Source of the DNA: Alkalibaculum bacchi | Lineage (GTDB): Bacteria > Bacillota > Clostridia > Eubacteriales > Alkalibacteraceae | DNA length: 32,000 nt | Assembly: GCF_003317055.1 (NCBI RefSeq) | Contig: NZ_QNRX01000001.1 | Location: 93,641 to 125,640 of the forward strand | Direction of reading: 5' to 3' | In this document: positions 3,579 to 30,775 of the stretch, piece after piece | Position numbering within the stretch: the first letter of the stretch is position 1 | Layout of the letters: each line of letters starts with the position of its first letter | Notes under the pieces: model-generated | Seen by the model: the letters and a program-made list of their open reading frames with translations, nothing else | Database searches by the model: none | Told to the model about the DNA's origin: nothing | Position numbers and translations under genes: made by a program

Positions 3579-3772
3579 GATGATGGTTGGACGGTTGGAC
3601 GGGAAAAAGCAGAAAGCTGAATGCTGAAAGCGGAAAACTCGCCTTTGGGCGAGAAAAGGACCCATGCTTATGATAATTTAATTCCTAGATCCTTCGTCGC
3701 AAGCTCCTCAGGATGACCGTGTAGTAGCTAGAGGCTCAATAGAGATTCGCAGACGATTGCTTTCTAGCTACT
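3579..3772 (+). repeat. Mosaic intergenic element copy F
   Basis: GGTTGGACGGTTGGAC comes first. Four heptamers follow (GCAGAAA GCTGAAT GCTGAAA GCGGAAA, 3609-3636). The CTCGCC-tttg-GGCGAG hairpin lies at 3638-3653. The mini-core GATCCTTCGTCGCAAGCTCCTCAGGATGACCGTGTAG lies at 3688-3724. A 10-bp hairpin AGTAGCTAGA/TCTAGCTACT spans 3723-3772. Confidence 0.8.
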
Positions 3773-4963: not shown

Positions 4964-4984
4964 TTGTTCTCCTTTCGTCAATAA

Positions 4985-5029
4985 GCGGAAAGCAGAAAGC
5001 AAAAAGCCGAAAAAGCAATTTGCTTTCTG
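4985..5029 (+). repeat. Heptamer word array (GCGGAAA GCAGAAA GCAAAAA GCCGAAAAA) with a CAGAAAGCA/TGCTTTCTG stem
   Basis: Period-7 units were read directly, between the MetH-like stop and the tsaE start. Confidence 0.7.
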
Positions 5030-7308: not shown

Positions 7309-7400
7309 ATGTGCCTTGGTTGCTAGTCATTAGTTTCTAGTCACTAGCACTAATGTATTTCTTTAGGGTCTAAATGCTTCATTTACGCTTAAGTGTCTAA
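7309..7400 (+). repeat. Mosaic intergenic element copy H
   Basis: The heptamers TAGTCAT TAGTTTC TAGTCAC TAGCACT lie at 7324-7351. GTATTTCTTTAGGGTC follows, related to the GTATTCCTTTTGGGTC module. Confidence 0.7.
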
Positions 7401-7442
7401 TAAATCATTAAATCCTAAAGTAAAATTTTCAATAAAAGACAT

Positions 7443-7489: not shown

Positions 7490-8077
7490 TTATTTATGTA
7501 ATATAGGAGATACTTTTTTATACATTAACATAGTGATAATAGAAATACCTAAAGTTTTTAATATATTAAATGGTGTAATTCCGTATAATATTAATGTTAA
7601 ATAGTCTTTTATAGCCGGATTCACTACAGAGCCCATTCCTACAATTGCTTCCATTGGCATCATGGTCTCGTAAAATGGAAGAGTAATATAATAGTTTACA
7701 AATCCTGCAATGATAATCATGCTTATGGCTCCTACTGTCAATCCAGTAATTGCATTTTTCTTTGTTTTCTCACGTTTATAAATCATTCCTATAGGAATGA
7801 CCCAAGCACAACCTATAAGGAAGTTTGCCAATTGTCCTACCCCACCTGTTTCCGATCCTTTTACAATAAGATGCAAAATATTTTTGATGAACTCGATAAG
7901 TACACCAGCTACTGGACCCATAGAAAAAGCACCTAGTATAGCGGGAATATCGCTGACATCAATTTTTAAAAACGCTGGAAATAACATAGGAATAGGAAAA
8001 TCAATATACATTAAAATAAATGCAATTGTACTGAGAACTGCTATTCTCACCAAATATTTTGTTTTGTTGCTAGCCAT
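7490..8077 (-). CDS. ribU: ECF transporter S component, riboflavin (RibU-like)
   Basis: The 195-aa product is a multi-pass membrane protein. It sits downstream of an FMN riboswitch on the same strand. Confidence 0.75.
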   Translation of the reverse strand: MASNKTKYLVRIAVLSTIAFILMYIDFPIPMLFPAFLKIDVSDIPAILGAFSMGPVAGVLIEFIKNILHLIVKGSETGGVGQLANFLIGCAWVIPIGMIYKREKTKKNAITGLTVGAISMIIIAGFVNYYITLPFYETMMPMEAIVGMGSVVNPAIKDYLTLILYGITPFNILKTLGISIITMLMYKKVSPILHK

Positions 8078-8126: not shown

Positions 8127-8259
8127 AGAAAGCGCCTTCGGCACTTTAGTCGTTCATCTTTAATCCTTAGCATTCGGGCATTCCTTTTGGGTCAAAATCC
8201 TTCGCTTGCGCTCAGGATGACTAGGAAAGAGCTAGGTCAAAAGTGGGACTTTCGTATTC
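8127..8259 (+). repeat. Mosaic intergenic element copy A (full core)
   Basis: The AAAGCGCC-ttc-GGCACTTT hairpin lies at 8129-8147. The core spans 8176-8259 and reads GGGCATTCCTTTTGGGTCAAAATCCTTCGCTTGCGCTCAGGATGACTAGGAAAGAGCTAGGTCAAAAGTGGGACTTTCGTATTC. Confidence 0.85.
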
Positions 8260-8261
8260 AA

Positions 8262-8445
8262 TAAAAAACCAGCTCTCAATTACTCAAGGGCTGGTTTTAT
8301 ACTAACTTAATATTAACGTAAGTCAAATATTAATCCTCTCTCATCCAGACTTTACTGTCGGTCTTGGAATTGCACCAAGTCAACCTAAAAAGGCTCGCGG
8401 ACTTTACCGCCGGTCGGGAATTGCACCCTGCCCTGAGAATTTAAT
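8262..8445 (-). ncRNA. FMN (RFN) riboswitch with intrinsic terminator
   Basis: The minus strand reads TTCTCAGGGCAGGGTGCAATTCCCGACCGGCGGTAAAGTCCGCGAGCC...GGTTGACTTGGTGCAATTCCAAGACCGACAGTAAAGTCTGGATGAGAGAG, which matches the RFN consensus. A CCAGCCCTT...AGAGCTGG hairpin plus a T-run follows at 8262-8296. Confidence 0.9.
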
Positions 8446-8500: not shown

Positions 8501-8599
8501 AACTATAGTCGAACGGTTGTTTTTTAACAGTAGTTAAACCATTGTTGAACAGTCGCTAGACAGTAGTCAAACAATGGCTTAACCATAGTTTAACTATCG
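8501..8599 (+). repeat. 11-nt periodic array (9 units, consensus about TTnAACnrTnG)
   Basis: The units are aactatagtcg aacggttgttt tttaacagtag ttaaaccattg ttgaacagtcg ctagacagtag tcaaacaatgg cttaaccatag tttaactatcg. The array lies between the tex stop and the ribU promoter. Confidence 0.8.
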
Positions 8600-8604
8600 T
8601 CCCA

Positions 8605-10758
8605 CTATTGCTCTTCTTTCATACTAAGTGAAATTCGTCCTCTCTCTACGTCTACTCCTATGACTCTTACTTTGACAATATCGCCTACTGCCACTACATC
8701 CATAGGGTTTCTGACAAATTTATCGCTTAATTGTGAAATGTGCACTAATCCATCTTGATGTACTCCTATATCTACAAAAGCGCCAAAGTCAATTACATTA
8801 CGTACAGTTCCTGTCAGTACCATACCTTCTTTAAGGTCTTTTACTTCCATTACTTCTGTCTTAAAGATTGGTCTATCGAATTCATCTCGAGGATCCCTTC
8901 CTGGTTTTTGAATTTCTTTTAGGATATCCACAAGGGTTAGCTTTCCAATGGACAAATCATTAGAGAACTGTTCTATATTTACCTTACTAAAGGCTTTACC
9001 TATTTCAGAATATTTTGTTCGTATATCTTCAATTTTATAATTGAAATGATCTAAAAGCCTTATTGCATCTTCATAAGATTCTGGATGCACGGCAGTATTA
9101 TCTAAGGGATTTTCGCCTTCTGAAATCCTTAAAAAGCCTGCCGCTTGTTCAAAAGCCTTGTCCCCAATTTTTTTTACCTTTTTTATGGTAGCTCTATTTG
9201 TAAAAGGACCATTTTCTCTTCTATATTCAATAATATTTTGAGCAGTTGTATTGTTAAGACCAGAAATATTTTTTAAGAGAGACACAGACGCTGTATTAAT
9301 ATCTACTCCAACGCTGTTCACCACGTCTTCAATGACTCCATCTAATGATTTTTGAAGCTCTTTTTGATTTACATCGTGTTGATATTGTCCTACTCCTATG
9401 TGCTTTGGATCGATCTTTACCAATTCAGCTAAGGGATCTTGTAATCTTCTAGCAATAGAAATAGCTCCTCTTAAAGATACATTGATATCTGGAAATTCTT
9501 CATTGGCTAATTTTGATGCAGAATATACAGATGCCCCTGCTTCATTGACTACTAGGTATTCTACTTTTAAATTGTTCTTCTTAATAAAACCTGCCACAAT
9601 GATTTCTGATTCCCTAGAAGCCGTTCCATTTCCTATAGCAATTAATGTAATAGCGTGGTTTTTGACAAGGCGTAAAAGGGTCTTTTCAGATTCTTCAATC
9701 TTATTCTCAGGAGCAGTAGGATAGATCGTAGCCGTATCTAAAAGTTCTCCAAATTCATCTACTACAGCTAGCTTGCAACCTGTACGAAAGGCTGGATCAA
9801 AGCCTAAAACCACCCGACCTTTTACTGGTGGCTGCAATAAATAGTTCTTTAAATTAGTGGCAAATACCTTTATAGCTTCTTTTTCCGCTACTTCAGTAAG
9901 GGTAGAACGGATTTCTCGCTCTATTGAAGGAAAAATAAGTCTCTTATAAGAGTCTTTTATAGCATCTATCATAAATTGATTTGTGTGTTCATTTAAGAGT
10001 TTGCTGTTTAAATACTGCAAAATTCTTTCTTCATCCATCTGAACCTTTACATTCAGTATGCCTTTTTTCTCTCCACGATTCGTTGCTAGTACTCGATGAT
10101 TTGCAATTTTATTTACTTTTTCAGAGAAATCGTAGTACATCTCAAATTCTGTGATCTCTTCCTGCGATTTCTTCGAGTAAGTGGATGTAAGAAAACCATA
10201 TTCAAAGACGAATTCACGAATCTTTTTACGATACTCAGCCTCATCAGATATATCCTCAGCTATAATATCCATAGCTTTGATTACAGCGTCTTCTCCAGTT
10301 TCAATTTTCTTTTCAAGATCAATGTATTTCTTACCTTCTTGAAGAATCTCTTCATCTGTGGATATTTGCAGTCGAATAAGCGTAGCGAGTGGCTCTAAAC
10401 CTAATTCTCTAGCTATAACGGCCCTAGTCTTTCGTTTTTGCTTATACGGAAGGTATAAATCCTCAACTTCTTGGAGGATTCCCGCCATTTCGATTTTTTT
10501 AGTTAGTCCATCTGTCAATTTACCCTGGTTTTCAATAGAACGGAGGACTTCTTCTTTTCGTTTTTCTAAATGCCTTAAATACATTAATCTTTCATCTAAT
10601 TCACGAAGAGTAACATCATCTAAATTTCCAGTGGCTTCCTTGCGATATCTAGCAATAAAAGGAATCGTATTTCCCTCGTCGATGAGATGAATTGTAGTCT
10701 CGACTTGATTTCTTTTTATATTAAATTCTTTTGTAATTTGTTCTATAATCTTATTCAA
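8605..10758 (-). CDS. tex: Transcription accessory protein Tex (S1 RNA-binding domain protein)
   Basis: The 717-aa product has a Tex N-terminal region (IPFIARYRKEATG), a YqgF/RuvC-like middle region, HhH motifs and a C-terminal S1 domain (GTVRNVIDFGAFVDIG). Confidence 0.9.
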   Translation of the reverse strand: MNKIIEQITKEFNIKRNQVETTIHLIDEGNTIPFIARYRKEATGNLDDVTLRELDERLMYLRHLEKRKEEVLRSIENQGKLTDGLTKKIEMAGILQEVEDLYLPYKQKRKTRAVIARELGLEPLATLIRLQISTDEEILQEGKKYIDLEKKIETGEDAVIKAMDIIAEDISDEAEYRKKIREFVFEYGFLTSTYSKKSQEEITEFEMYYDFSEKVNKIANHRVLATNRGEKKGILNVKVQMDEERILQYLNSKLLNEHTNQFMIDAIKDSYKRLIFPSIEREIRSTLTEVAEKEAIKVFATNLKNYLLQPPVKGRVVLGFDPAFRTGCKLAVVDEFGELLDTATIYPTAPENKIEESEKTLLRLVKNHAITLIAIGNGTASRESEIIVAGFIKKNNLKVEYLVVNEAGASVYSASKLANEEFPDINVSLRGAISIARRLQDPLAELVKIDPKHIGVGQYQHDVNQKELQKSLDGVIEDVVNSVGVDINTASVSLLKNISGLNNTTAQNIIEYRRENGPFTNRATIKKVKKIGDKAFEQAAGFLRISEGENPLDNTAVHPESYEDAIRLLDHFNYKIEDIRTKYSEIGKAFSKVNIEQFSNDLSIGKLTLVDILKEIQKPGRDPRDEFDRPIFKTEVMEVKDLKEGMVLTGTVRNVIDFGAFVDIGVHQDGLVHISQLSDKFVRNPMDVVAVGDIVKVRVIGVDVERGRISLSMKEEQ

Positions 10759-10776: not shown

Positions 10777-10891
10777 TAGTCTCTAGTCAATAGTCATTAG
10801 TCACTAGCTTGCATGTATTCCTTTTGAGTCTTATATGCTACCTTCGGGTAACTAAGTGCTAGAGACTAGGGTCTAATGACTAAAGACTAGC
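10777..10891 (+). repeat. Mosaic intergenic element copy I (long hairpin with heptamer arms)
   Basis: The left arm is TAGTCTC TAGTCAA TAGTCAT TAGTCAC TAGC (10777-10808). The right arm GTGCTAGAGACTAGGGTCTAATGACTAAAGACTAGC (10856-10891) is its imperfect complement. The loop carries GTATTCCTTTTGAGTC and GCTACCttcgGGTAAC. Confidence 0.8.
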
Positions 10892-18136: not shown

Positions 18137-18378
18137 TTCAACAACTCCTAAATTATAGATATATATAATGATACCATTAAAATACCATATAATGATATAA
18201 AAAAACACAAATCATTAAAAAATATTCTAATAAATATACAGCTATATGCAGTCAAATAGAAAATTTAAGTTTATACTATATGAATGATAGTTGAACGATG
18301 ATAAATAGTAGTTAGGTGATTACTTAAAATATTGAAAACAGGTACGTTTAGATTTTTATAGTTAGTGCATTTCACAAG

Positions 18379-18491
18379 AAAGTGCCATGGGGTGTATTAG
18401 TCTCTAGCGTATTCCTTTTGGGTCAAGATTCTTCGCTTGTGCTCAGGATGACTGGGTAGGAGCCCATGTCAAAAGTAGGACTTTCCTATTA
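18379..18491 (+). repeat. Mosaic intergenic element copy B (full core)
   Basis: AAAGTGCCATGG comes first. The core then reads GTATTCCTTTTGGGTCAAGATTCTTCGCTTGTGCTCAGGATGACTGGGTAGGAGCCCATGTCAAAAGTAGGACTTTCCTATTA. Confidence 0.85.
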
Positions 18492-18500
18492 CATTACATC

Positions 18501-18531
18501 AAAAAAGAGCAAAGCGAAAAGCTTTGCCCTT
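18501..18531 (-). terminator. Intrinsic terminator of hpf
   Basis: The minus strand reads GGGCAAAGC-ttttc-GCTTTGCTC followed by TTTTTT. Confidence 0.8.
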
Positions 18532-18547
18532 TAACATTTTGAACTAT

Positions 18548-19075
18548 TTAGATGGTCGGCTCGATTAATCCGTAATTGCCATCTTTTCTCTTATATACTA
18601 CATTTACTTCATCGCTTTCACTATTTAAGAAAACGAAAAAATTATGTCCTATTAAATCCATTTGAAGAGAAGCTTCTTCTGGTGACATCGGCTTTATTGG
18701 GAATCTCTTTGTCTTTACAATTCGATTTTCTTCTTGATTGTTACCACTTTCAGGAATAGAGTCGAATCGAATAGTAGCTTGTTCTTTGTATTTTCTTTCA
18801 ATTTTTGTTTTATGTTTCCTTAGTTGTCCTTCTAATTTATCAACAACTTTATCGATAGAGCCATACATATCGTCAGTAGCTTCCTCAGCTCTCAAAAAAG
18901 AACCATTAATTTTAATTTGTACTTCTAAAATATGCATATTCTTTTGAGTACTAAGAGTTGCAGTTGCTTCCACCTCAGGAACGAAGTATTTGTCGAGCTT
19001 AGACAATTTCTTTTCCAACATATTTCTTAACCCTTCAGTTACTTCGATATTCTTCCCATATACTATTACTCGCAT
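18548..19075 (-). CDS. hpf: Ribosome hibernation promoting factor (long HPF/RaiA family)
   Basis: The 175-aa product begins MRVIVYGKNIEVTEGLR and has a C-terminal dimerisation region (FFVFLNSESDEVNVVYKRKDGNYGLIEP). Confidence 0.9.
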   Translation of the reverse strand: MRVIVYGKNIEVTEGLRNMLEKKLSKLDKYFVPEVEATATLSTQKNMHILEVQIKINGSFLRAEEATDDMYGSIDKVVDKLEGQLRKHKTKIERKYKEQATIRFDSIPESGNNQEENRIVKTKRFPIKPMSPEEASLQMDLIGHNFFVFLNSESDEVNVVYKRKDGNYGLIEPTI

Positions 19076-19210: not shown

Positions 19211-19328
19211 GGTGGACAGGTAGTCTGAAAAAAAGCTGAATGCGGAAAGCGGAAAGCGGAAAAAAACTCGCTGTAGGCGAGGTTGTGTAGGATCCTTCGT
19301 CGCTTCGCTCCTCAGGATGACTATGTAG
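19211..19328 (+). repeat. Mosaic intergenic element copy G, co-linear with copy F
   Basis: GGTGGACAGGTAGTCTG is followed by the heptamers GCTGAAT GCGGAAA GCGGAAA GCGGAAA (19235-19262). The CTCGCtgtagGCGAG hairpin comes next. The mini-core is GATCCTTCGTCGCTTCGCTCCTCAGGATGACTATGTAG (19291-19328). Confidence 0.8.
19267..19281 (-). terminator. Hairpin plus T7 run, a possible terminator for the upstream ncRNA transcript
   Basis: The minus strand reads CTCGC-ctaca-GCGAG followed by TTTTTTT (plus A-run 19260-19266). The stem is short (5 bp). Confidence 0.4.
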
Positions 19329-19390
19329 AAAATTATATTATAGTAGAAATTAGTACCTTAATGATAACTTTAAAATCGTTTTTTAGATAC

Positions 19391-19445
19391 TTAAACAATT
19401 GTTTAACTACCGTTTAACCATTGCTCAACAATCGTTTAACAACTG
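19391..19445 (+). repeat. 11-nt periodic array (5 units)
   Basis: The units are ttaaacaattg tttaactaccg tttaaccattg ctcaacaatcg tttaacaactg. The first unit is identical to the last unit of the 30544 array. Confidence 0.8.
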
Positions 19446-19484
19446 TTTTTACTTACAACTTAAAGCTTAAAACGTAGAACTATT

Positions 19485-19692
19485 ACCGCCTTAGCTGACC
19501 TGGTCTTTGCCCCCACACTCGCCAGCTGGAAGTTTAGCTAGGGTTCGCCTTCACAACTCCTTCTCTCAATTTCTTAATTGGCTGGTCTTACATCTAAGCC
19601 GCACCATGCTCAGTATGCTCTTTTGGCTTACCTTACGTGGATCGTTTTGCCTGCGACTGGCATCGATTTTCAACCACAGACCTAAGGCGTCC
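19485..19692 (-). ncRNA. Candidate structured ncRNA of about 205 nt, possibly raiA-motif class
   Basis: It is a GC-rich island in AT-rich DNA. Nested helices can be drawn on the minus strand. The closing stem pairs CGCCTTAG (RNA 5' end, plus 19682-19689) with CTAAGGCG (3' end, plus 19487-19494). Internal stems are TGTGG/CCACG, ATCG/CGAT, TGCC/GGCA, TAAGCC/GGCTTA, CCAGC/GCTGG, CAATT/AATTG and GGAGTT/AACTtCC. A consensus promoter lies immediately upstream, and the element sits upstream of hpf/raiA. Confidence 0.55.
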
Positions 19693-19726: not shown

Positions 19727-19727
19727 G

Positions 19728-20064
19728 ATGAAAGTGCCAAGGCACTTTATCGATCAGCAACCAGCCGCCAGTCACCTGTACTCTCGGGCTAAGCTTTGCG
19801 GGTCAAAGATCCTTCGCTAGCGCTCTAGGATGACTCGGCAGTTGCTAGGGCCAAAAGCGTATGTTTCCTAGTATAGAAAGCATATGCCACCAAAGGTAGC
19901 TTGTCTGTTTTGCTGACCACGTGGGAGTAATACCCGATTTATCTAGCCCGAAGAATAAGAGAAATCGAGTGGCATTACCCCTGTCAAGGTGGGCAGGTTT
20001 GTAGCGACTAGAAGGAGCTAGAAACCCGCAACCTACGACAGACCACCTGACCACCTGACCACCT
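19728..20064 (+). repeat. Composite mosaic element copy C
   Basis: The AAAGTGCCaaGGCACTTT hairpin lies at 19730-19747. The heptamers are AGCAACC AGCCGCC AGTCACC. The core variant is GGGTCAAAGATCCTTCGCTAGCGCTCTAGGATGACTCGGCAGTTGCTAGGGCCAAAAGCG. A GCCACCAAAGGTAGC module follows, then an extended imperfect hairpin of about 90 nt (19911-19999). The element ends with GACCACCT x3 (20041-20064). Confidence 0.75.
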
Positions 20065-20108
20065 TATCAATCTTGTAAACGAGCACATTCTCATTTTCTG
20101 TGTTTTAG

Positions 20109-21121: not shown

Positions 21122-21140
21122 AGAAGAAGCTTCAATATTT

Positions 21141-21203
21141 TAGCCATCAGCCACCAGCCACTAGTGCTCTAAGCCAGGGGCTTGGGTCAAAAGTAACACC
21201 TGC
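21141..21203 (+). repeat. Mosaic element copy E, lacking the CCTTCGC..CAGGATGAC insert ('empty site')
   Basis: The heptamers AGCCATC AGCCACC AGCCACT AGTGCTC come first. CCAGGGGCTTGGGTCAAAAGTAACACC follows, with a single GGTCAAAAG where copies A-D have two flanking an insert of about 45 nt. Confidence 0.7.
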
Positions 21204-21244
21204 ATATAAAATGGCTCAAATAGTTGCATTTTCTCAAAGTAGCA

Positions 21245-21296
21245 AAACAGAGACAAAGGGGACAGATTTATAAATCTGTCCCCTTTGTCTCTGTTT
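21245..21296. terminator. 52-nt perfect palindrome, a bidirectional terminator between convergent fba and the radical SAM gene
   Basis: AAACAGAGACAAAGGGGACAGATTTA and its exact reverse complement TAAATCTGTCCCCTTTGTCTCTGTTT abut each other. A/T runs sit at the stem base. Confidence 0.6.
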
Positions 21297-25280: not shown

Positions 25281-25399
25281 CTAGTGACTAGCCATTAACC
25301 GCTAGTCACTAGTATCATGGTATTCCTCTAGGGTCCTTTTGCTATCAAAGGTAGCATTACGGTTTTTGGTTTTAAGATTTAGCTTACCACCTTATGTAG
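25281..25399 (+). repeat. Mosaic intergenic element copy J
   Basis: The 12-bp perfect hairpin CTAGTGACTAGC-cattaacc-GCTAGTCACTAG begins right after the PP2C stop. GTATTCCTCTAGGGTC and GCTATCAAAGGTAGC follow. Then GGTTTTAAGATTTAGCTTACCACCTTATGTAG parallels 30657-30685. Confidence 0.75.
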
Positions 25400-25795: not shown

Positions 25796-25968
25796 AGCCA
25801 TCAGCTGCCAGCTATTAGTCACTAGTCTTTAGTCCCTAGCATTAGGGGATTCCTTTTGGGTCAAGATCCCTCGCTTGCGCTCAGGATGACCGGGTAAGAG
25901 CCAATGTTAAAAGCAGAGATTTCCTATTAAAAAACACTAGCGACTCTTGACTAGCCGCTAGTGACTAA
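25796..25968 (+). repeat. Mosaic intergenic element copy D (full core with inverted heptamer arms)
   Basis: Seven heptamers span 25796-25844 (AGCCATC AGCTGCC AGCTATT AGTCACT AGTCTTT AGTCCCT AGCATTA). The core is GGGGATTCCTTTTGGGTCAAGATCCCTCGCTTGCGCTCAGGATGACCGGGTAAGAGCCAATGTTAAAAGCAGAGATTTCCTATTA. The inverted arm is CACTAGCGACTCTTGACTAGCCGCTAGTGACTA (25936-25968). Confidence 0.85.
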
Positions 25969-30543: not shown

Positions 30544-30620
30544 TTGAACAGTAGTTAAACGATCTTGAAACCATAGTTGAACAATGGTTGAGCAATAGTT
30601 AAACGATGGTTAAACAATTG
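30544..30620 (+). repeat. 11-nt periodic array (7 units) directly upstream of the Crp/Fnr start codon
   Basis: The units are ttgaacagtag ttaaacgatct tgaaaccatag ttgaacaatgg ttgagcaatag ttaaacgatgg ttaaacaattg. The array ends 14 nt from the ATG at 30530. Confidence 0.8.
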
Positions 30621-30629
30621 TATTAGACT

Positions 30630-30740
30630 CTCGCCTACGGCGAGTTCAACTTTAAAGGTTTTAAAATTTTGCTTACCACCTTACCACCTTACTACCTTAC
30701 TACCTTACCACCTGACCACCTGACTACCTGACTACCTTAA
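30630..30740 (+). repeat. CTCGCC-tac-GGCGAG hairpin plus an 8-unit octamer array
   Basis: The octamers at 30672-30735 are CTTACCAC x2, CTTACTAC x2, CTTACCAC, CTGACCAC, CTGACTAC x2. Only positions 3 (T/G) and 6 (C/T) vary. Confidence 0.85.
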
Positions 30741-30741
30741 C

Positions 30742-30775
30742 GAAAAAAACACGAAATCATCTCTGATTCGTGTTT
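30742..30775 (-). terminator. Intrinsic terminator after the tRNA
   Basis: The minus strand reads AACACGAAtcagagatgaTTTCGTGTT followed by TTTTTT. Confidence 0.75.

Follow-up and report, generated by a model that had tools for sequence, protein, structure and literature searches.

RAYTs (TnpA-REP) are Y1 HUH transposases related to IS200/IS605. The repeats of the REP, REPIN and BIME type combine a head with an imperfect palindrome whose middle is non-complementary, and they form inverted doublets and alternating arrays (PMC2817692, PMC3116915). The foot of the REP palindrome bears a conserved GT(A/G)G head (PMC2817692), and group 1 RAYTs have been reported in Clostridia (PMC5581495). The Alkalibaculum bacchi repeat analysed here resembles REPs in several respects: its core is a short extragenic imperfect palindrome (25-31 nt) with a non-complementary middle and a 3-4-nt head, it is multicopy, it is frequent at gene 3′ ends, and both of its strands can fold. 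The wide family of hairpins to which this core belongs adds REPIN- and BIME-like features, namely 58 outward-head inverted doublets with a short spacer and an alternating array with an 87-nt period (contig L114). The element differs from REPs in its head, (Y)GTC(AT) / GAC(R), from which GT(A/G)G is absent (GTAG was found only 5 nt downstream of two solo cores), and in that the frame of the wide family extends across phyla and phages, whereas REPs are lineage-specific. Unlike REPINs, copies in A. bacchi occur singly, point one way (19/20) and lie inside an ~80-nt composite. Because the GT(A/G)G head is absent and the copies are polar solos, the element was not filed as a REP. No rayt gene was found in the 2.5 Mb of loci searched.

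A second comparison is with the MITE-like repeats Correia, RUP, BOX, SPRITE and ERIC (reviewed in PMC3184786). The element shares with these a length of ~80-110 nt, an ORF-less, intergenic and modular organization, arms that can pair (~91%), presence that varies among strains, and co-transcription of some copies with neighbouring genes. Unlike MITEs, it has no clear IS-type terminal inverted repeats, target-site duplication or related full-length IS, and its polarity is strict; unlike SPRITE-type terminator repeats, it has no U-run right after the hairpin within the element. The bcr repeats of Bacillus cereus offer a further comparison from the Firmicutes. In cyanobacteria, Elhai et al. reportedly described in 2008 the STRR heptamer arrays and the nested small dispersed repeats (SDR) of Nostoc, which the A. 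bacchi repeats recall in having intergenic tandem heptamers (TAGTCNN here), small hairpin repeats nested in larger mosaics, and hypervariable intergenic regions, although both phylum and sequences are different.

Group IIC introns insert just downstream of intrinsic-terminator hairpins, in upstream-gene sense and leading-strand sequence. The likeness of the element to them is one of position only. An intron fragment was rejected on the basis of size (~80 nt) and the lack of ribozyme domains, an RT ORF or an Rfam intron match, and group II domain V was rejected on inspection, the lower helix being 3 bp (GUC/GAC) with a 3-nt bulge and with neither an AGC triad nor the domain V bulge geometry. 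By analogy, the polarity and post-terminator position recall IS200/IS605, RAYT, group IIC introns and other users of single-stranded DNA at the replication fork.

A composite repeat in intergenic DNA

A. bacchi is a syngas-fermenting acetogen. Repeats are not mentioned in its genome paper. The window (the whole 32,000-nt stretch of DNA analysed) is 100% identical to contig RXYD01000002.1 of A. bacchi GCA_008086585.1 and has ordinary chromosomal gene content, including SecA, Tex, HPF, fba, asrABC and an ECF S-component. Its GC content is 34%, its GC skew is negative along the whole length, and the majority of its genes lie on the minus strand, as the preliminary description had correctly noted.

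The contig was extended to 50.2 kb for a local copy census, and a profile built from the copies was searched with nhmmer. Five full copies and two solo cores were found in the 50.2 kb, all on the plus strand, with the fifth full copy located 1.7 kb before the window start; the resulting density is approximately one copy per 7-10 kb. Full copies were recovered with E-values of 1e-20 to 1e-26, and the solo cores at 3686-3735 and 19291-19331 with E = 2e-4 and 7e-3, respectively (features are listed in the table below). Nine further copies were found in contigs of a 97%-identical strain. Pairwise divergence among copies is 11-20%. All copies are intergenic, as are all 20 A. bacchi hairpins. A strict pattern searched against 185,579 species-representative genomes matched one A. 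bacchi MAG only; its four matching loci are non-syntenic, and two lie where a contig ends.

These searches largely bear out the preliminary description of the copies. The four same-strand copies in the window do align over their full length (~80 nt, all plus), with starts that had been placed 3-4 nt too early, and the consensus drawn from them agrees with a 14-copy alignment (A4), which is the basis of the consensus and pairing counts given here. The six short motifs reported on the plus strand comprise five occurrences of CTCAGGATGAC in the window (all plus, chance expectation 0.21) and one of CTCTAGGATGAC, with a 1-nt insertion, in the diverged copy 4. The supposedly truncated cores at 3688 and 19291 are real, as solo hairpins of a sister subtype with the loop TCGTCGC..GCTCCTC.

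Features of the repeat and of adjoining terminators in the window
Feature	Position	Strand	Description
Full copy 1	8180-8258	+	Between the FMN riboswitch terminator and the riboswitch-controlled ORF
Arms of copy 1	within 8180-8258	+	Left ATTCCTTTTGG; right GTCAAAAGTGGGACTTTCGTATT; second small hairpin between core and right arm
Core hairpin of copy 1	GTC 8191-8193, ATCCT 8197-8201, AGGAT 8214-8218, GAC 8219-8221	+	
Full copy 2	18411-18490	+	Stem ATTCT/AGGAT (U.G on +); directly after the HPF gene terminator in minus-strand sense
Full copy 3	25849-25928	+	Stem ATCCC/AGGAT; between convergent genes, abuts the asrC terminator
Diverged full copy 4	19791-19873	+	Two 1-nt insertions; divergent raiA-RNA/HPF - fba intergenic region
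Solo core hairpin	3688-3724	+	ATCCTTCGTCGCAAGCTCCTCAGGATGAC then CGTGTAG
Solo core hairpin	19291-19328	+	ATCCTTCGTCGCTTCGCTCCTCAGGATGAC, TGTAG on either side
Variant	7324-7420	+	Upstream module (TAGTCNN heptamers and GTATTTCTTTAGGGTC); compensated outer pairing CTTTAGG/CCTAAAG; interior differs
Variant	10784-10880	+	Same heptamer and GTATTCCTTTTGAGTC left module; interior differs
Variant	25289-25370	+	Left module GGTATTCCTCTAGGGTC; interior differs
TAGTCNN-type heptamer tract with small CTAGCATT(A/C)GGG hairpin	8147-8179; also 25809-25848, 18395-18410	+	
HPF gene intrinsic terminator	18504-18532	-	T-run abuts right end of copy 2 (terminator scan)
asrC intrinsic terminator	25935-25963	-	T-run abuts right end of copy 3 (terminator scan)
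FMN riboswitch expression-platform terminator hairpin and T-run	8262-8303	-	Abuts right end of copy 1

On the plus strand the modules follow one another in the order (TAGTCNN)n heptamers, small hairpin CTAGCATTAGGG, left arm GTATTCCTTTTGG (~20 nt), bulged core hairpin (31 nt), second hairpin and right arm GTCAAAAGTAGGACTTTCCTATTA (~24 nt); the heptamer tract and small hairpin precede nearly every A. bacchi copy. The core reads GTC-AAG-ATCCT-TCGCTTGCGCTC-AGGAT-GAC and is followed, after its GAC, by the second hairpin, a weak TGG(G)-loop-(C)CYA structure, without a T-run of its own. Read directly on the minus strand, the core is GUC-AUCCU-GA-GC-GCAA-GC-GA-AGGAU-CUU-GAC, with tandem G.A pairs and a GNRA-like tip. 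Comparison by eye with the cores of the hammerhead, K-turn, C/D-box and group II domain V showed these motifs to be unlike it.

The core stem is paired in 97% across the 14 copies, with double changes from C-G to U-A in 3/14 and U.G in 2/14. The left arm CCTTTTGG and right arm CAAAAG(T)AGG can also pair (91% of cells, one compensated pair), but they are short and were dropped by RNAalifold, which retained the core hairpin alone on either strand. A three-way junction of outer P1, core hairpin and second hairpin leaves 93% of cells paired, with little covariation outside the core. This fuller model contains 29 G.U against 6 A.C wobbles, a count that favours the plus strand and that is biased because the structure was drawn with plus-strand wobbles in mind; similarly, 93% of cells pair on the plus strand versus 86% on the minus strand. 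The RNAalifold consensus energy is instead slightly better on the minus strand (-10.6 vs -8.4 kcal/mol), and single sequences fold no better than shuffled ones (z-scores -1.9 to +0.7). The core hairpin is the only robust part of the element, and a three-way-junction fold of the whole is a possibility. No Rfam 15 covariance model fits the element at either gathering or permissive thresholds; the only matches around it are raiA, FMN and tRNA, and weak matches to Chlorobi-1, RsaH and L10-leader were set aside as chance or as a neighbouring terminator.

Orientation, terminators and strain turnover

Polarity was counted for 20 hairpins in 11 A. bacchi regions, including contigs of a strain ~97% identical. 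Nineteen of the 20 lie on the negative-GC-skew strand, so that the orientation bias first described in the window holds well beyond it. Orientation tracks regional GC skew in 11/11 regions, with 7 convergent and 2 divergent gene contexts among the cases, and a single distant inverted pair was found in A. bacchi (contig L291). Within the window itself, replication direction and gene direction are confounded. On a Clostridia-like contig (L276) both hairpin orientations occur, the majority on the positive-skew strand, and replication-coupled polarity is therefore not universal.

Relative to the plus-strand form, the gene on the 3′ side is encoded on the opposite strand in 16/18 cases, while the 5′ neighbour runs the opposite way in 10 and the same way in 7. 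At least 9 of the 13 full copies have, 0-10 nt away, the end of a strong opposite-strand hairpin with its T-run; reading along the local genes, one meets gene, terminator, T-run, element and heptamers in turn. The adjoining terminators are separate, non-repeated hairpins. Neither a consistent promoter-like site at the copies nor a consistent terminator belonging to the element was found on either strand.

Copy 1 illustrates this arrangement at a riboswitch. An FMN riboswitch (8329-8444, minus strand, 121.7 bits) and its terminator are parted by ~190 nt of repeat DNA from the ORF they are expected to control, which encodes an ECF S-component (7490-8077, minus strand). Besides the element itself, that DNA comprises a heptamer tract together with a GAAAGCGCC..GGCACTTT hairpin, and the layout is kept in strains 99-100% identical. 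Since copy 1 follows the riboswitch terminator, it lies inside the 5′ UTR of the controlled ORF, a position that speaks more for opportunistic insertion than for a dedicated function. Near copy 4, a full-length raiA motif RNA (19486-19690, minus strand, 186 bits) lies upstream of the ORF for the HPF/RaiA-family ribosome hibernation factor (18548-19075, minus strand). This is the classic context of raiA RNA, whose function is not known.

Closely related strains were compared at the HPF site. The element is present there in the window and in one strain contig (L010), and is missing in five others (L006-L009 and L011), which have 47 unrelated nt instead, although the HPF protein is identical and the flanks are 97% identical. 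A clean empty site was sought at this locus and none was found, the "empty" allele being 47 nt of other repeat-like DNA; nor was a target-site duplication evident at A. bacchi element boundaries. In L010, from a 99% strain, 626 nt over the HPF gene, terminator and right arm are identical to the window, whereas the next 36 nt, the centre of the element, contain 7/36 mismatches, and the heptamer tract also differs in length. Replacement or loss of copies, together with such patch divergence, points to rapidly turning over repeat DNA that is moving or being converted between copies, and not to a fixed regulatory RNA. Logan and metagenome contigs often stop inside the element, and short-read assemblies break within copies.

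Intergenic hypervariability is general in A. bacchi. DNA flanking fba is unrelated between strains in which fba itself is 99.9% identical, and is made of other short repeats; in L028-L033, for example, it bears no relation to 19880-20041 and 21128-21251 of the window and includes GTTCTAC/GTTGTAA heptamers. The interval 21128-21250 is wholly replaced in other strains and lies just upstream of a perfect 52-nt palindrome (21245-21296, 31-nt overlapping arms) between the convergent fba (+) and radical-SAM (-) genes, which is probably a bidirectional terminator.

Several other repeats were seen in the window. Quasi-palindromic 11-mer (AACAATGGTTT-like) tandem arrays occupy intergenic positions 8527-8611, 19384-19446 and 30548-30632, and a similar array adjoins an element in L291. 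Tandem 8-mer CT(T/G)ACCAC arrays at 20039-20078 and 30664-30743, one upstream of fba and one beside tRNA-Met, vary among strains in length and in adjoining DNA. A dispersed repeat of GCGGAAAGC/GCTGAATGC units was found at 3604-3637, 4980-5013 and 19230-19263 (+), inverted at 273-304, and also upstream of fba in other strains (L030). A small hairpin, GAAAGTGCC-NNN-GGCACTTT(AGTC), stands beside heptamer tracts at 8129-8148, 18366-18390 and 19727-19746, and at ~3300-3325 of contig L004, and adds one more module to the intergenic mosaic.

A wider hairpin family in other bacteria and phages

A scan of metagenomes identified the A. bacchi left arm and core (~50 nt) in nearly identical form in other Clostridia-like contigs, with differing tips (GGCTGAAGCC, GGCTAGTGCC, GGCTAAAGCC) and without the A. 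bacchi right arm. One carrier of this module, which has hairpins in both orientations, encodes a SecA 66% identical to that of A. bacchi. Three metagenome contigs from different samples (L286, L287, L288) have in common a different conserved non-coding sequence, TTCCTTTTGGGTCAAACAACCCA...GATGACATAAAATATCCC..GGTTGGGGGTCCGTGAATATATTGAAT, that opens with the same 15-mer; having no relation to the repeat, this sequence is possibly a leader or an RNA element. The loop of the 19291 solo core (TCGTCGCTTCGCTCCTC) recurs in unrelated metagenome contigs with an ATTGC/GCAAT stem.

To reach further relatives, IMG/VR was searched with the patterns ATCCTTCG-N4-14-CTCAGGATGAC and ATTGCTTCG-N4-14-CTCGCAATGAC. 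Each matched at least 120 contigs, with an estimated ~5 expected by chance. The matched contigs contained further stems (ATTCT, ATTCC, ATGCT, ATCCC), and a GAC tail, for which there had been no selection, was present in 80/134. The resulting frame is AT-NNN-(T)TCG…CTC-N'N'N'-AT-GAC, in which the internal loop reads on the opposite strand as tandem G.A pairs (GAG/CGA). Three stem pairs covary and the tip varies within an otherwise invariant scheme of head and tail (GTC..GAC), closing A-T/T-A pairs and TCG/CTC internal loop; stems are perfectly paired in 442/464 hairpins. The family occurs in hundreds of phage-like contigs, and host GC content spans 30-72%. Approximately two thirds of these hairpins are intergenic, without orientation bias relative to genes.

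The usual arrangement is a doublet, (Y)GTCAT-NNN-GAG..CGAAG-NNN-AT, then a spacer, then AT-NNN-TTCG..CTC-NNN-ATGAC(R). Among 58 inverted doublets the spacer is mostly 17-26 nt and hairpin-forming. Only 7/58 have halves that are exact reverse complements, and each half is thus an independent hairpin. At 57/58 there is no flanking direct repeat of 2 nt or longer. Tandem arrays were seen on two phage-like contigs, one with the 87-nt doublet period (L114, 8545-8969) and one with a 33-nt period (L194, 2695-2817). Translation of such arrays yields the spurious peptides CHPERQRRIS / VILSVSEGS / SLRMT, which recur in "hypothetical proteins". The doublet also occurs in alphaproteobacterial megaplasmids and replicons of Novosphingobium (at least 40 places in one replicon), Methylosinus and Methylobacterium.

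Searches for a described counterpart or a dedicated enzyme were negative. Fourteen loci in which the wide-family hairpin abounds drew no Rfam match, the full element had no BLAST match among plasmids and phages, and literature searches by sequence strings for the element and core family returned only unrelated primers. ORFs beside wide-family hairpins are ordinary phage genes: Pfam analysis of 150 neighbouring ORFs identified no Y1/HUH ORF next to hairpins, none was present among ORFs bracketed by inverted hairpins, and a tblastn search of 2.5 Mb of loci with approximate IS200/IS608 TnpA queries likewise gave no hit. Two of the ORFs beside IMG/VR hairpins carry an Mtd_N domain (major tropism determinant). 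The major tropism determinant is a target of diversity-generating retroelements, and a link of these hairpins to DGR target hairpins is possible.

The preliminary description had taken conservation beyond the short stem as a sign of sequence-specific recognition. Within one genome such conservation is no argument for function, because recent amplification explains it. Recognition of more than a generic hairpin is supported on other grounds, by the near identity of left arm and core in an organism whose SecA is 66% identical and by an invariant frame with covarying stems. We tentatively suggest that the core hairpin is a member of an undescribed, REP-like superfamily spanning phyla and phages and served by one very widely distributed recognition machinery, of which the Alkalibaculum version would be derived, polar and terminator-targeting. 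Its frame would be (Y)GTC-AT-NNN-GAG-[variable tip]-CGA(A)-N'N'N'-AT, or AT-NNN-(T)TCG-..-CTC-N'N'N'-AT-GAC(R) when the complementary strand is read, with a three-hairpin inverted doublet closed by GTC/GAC as the putative typical unit. Retention of the same frame across 30-72% GC would imply a single, very widely distributed machinery. Instead of lineage-specific RAYTs, that machinery might be a hairpin-specific DNA enzyme not yet known, or else a universally present factor of RNA processing or DNA replication.

A proposed mobile DNA repeat and its alternatives

Multicopy, intergenic, polar and adjacent to terminators, with compensatory stem changes, with gain, loss and patch replacement between strains and with a core belonging to the wide family, the element is in our view, held with moderate confidence, a non-coding, non-autonomous interspersed DNA repeat of A. 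bacchi of the REP/BIME/MITE kind. The best-supported reading is that of a composite of several modules in which the core hairpin is the active one. In the model we propose, the core hairpin would extrude while the DNA is single-stranded, and an enzyme specific for both its structure and its sequence would recognise it, the closest precedent being a RAYT/IS200-like HUH transposase. Copies would then spread, or be patch-replaced via gene conversion between copies, and new copies would settle in a single polarity right after an intrinsic-terminator hairpin and T-run, where harm is small. Against the REP/MITE reading, the G.U versus A.C counts favour pairing on the plus strand, whereas a lagging-strand-template model would favour the minus-strand sequence.

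An alternative that we regard as unlikely is that the element acts as RNA in the minus-strand sense, stabilising or insulating read-through or 5′-UTR transcripts or giving RNase a processing site in them. REP, BOX and phage intercistronic hairpins are precedents for action within transcripts. The orientation of the repeat places the stable minus-strand form in local mRNAs in 16/18 contexts, copy 1 is necessarily transcribed within a ribU-like 5′ UTR, the minus-strand RNAalifold energy is slightly the better one (-10.6 vs -8.4 kcal/mol), and the spaces that separate structural genes on phage contigs are marked by hairpins and doublets. However, most copies lie past a terminator T-run and should be poorly transcribed, and a close strain lacks the element, or has it replaced, with the flanking gene unchanged. 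Moreover, the GNRA tip is not kept in related organisms, where the minus strand has UUCA, ACUA or UUUA, and the wide family has no orientation bias relative to genes. Such a role at the RNA level could coexist with mobility.

Less probable still is that a host protein of chromosome replication or organisation uses the element as a polar DNA site, for which the gyrase/IHF-binding BIMEs and the strand-skewed motifs KOPS/SRS are precedents. The agreement of orientation with GC skew in every region, convergent and divergent contexts included (11/11; 7 and 2), is what such a site would predict, but copies are lost or replaced between strains, and other organisms with the same module differ in polarity. 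The second-hairpin loop, GGGNAGGAG, would in our inference be only loosely KOPS-like, and on lagging-strand sequence.

The processed small RNA raised in the preliminary description fared poorly: Rfam gave no match, neither a consistent promoter nor an own terminator was found, folding is no better than that of shuffled sequences with RNAalifold keeping the core alone, and the element sits just past terminators and can be missing or replaced from one strain to another. That the plus strand gives rise to an independent small RNA or antisense RNA is very improbable. The uniform orientation of the element and the plus-strand wobbles (G.U 29 vs 6; 93% vs 86% of cells paired) would suit it, though the wobble count is biased by how the structure was drawn; a consistent upstream promoter, a consistent downstream terminator and an Rfam family are all wanting, the z-scores (-1.9 to +0.7) and a consensus fold limited to the core hairpin speak against it, and strains dispense with the element. 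A purely passive origin, with copies left over from old local duplications or from a dead element and having no current activity or recognition, is scarcely credible: their 11-20% divergence and the negative search for a mobilising gene would fit, but not the patch replacement of 7/36 positions beside 626 identical nt, the presence/absence differences at 97% identity, the compensatory stem changes or the nearly identical 50-nt module in a different genus-level lineage.

Taken together, the element is a real, lineage-specific composite repeat, ordinary in kind; its strict polarity, its terminator adjacency and the tie of its core to an apparently uncatalogued hairpin family spanning phyla and phages are unusual. 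It accounts for the mosaic, hypervariable intergenic regions of A. bacchi beside genes that are 99-100% identical, for the shattering of short-read A. bacchi assemblies and for a riboswitch parted from its ORF by repeat DNA. If one conserved machinery reads the frame, small hairpins of DNA or RNA would be moved or used by a system that is both new and very broad, and annotation would often pick up spurious small ORFs from the wide family (...CHPERSEGS.../...SLRMT... peptides).
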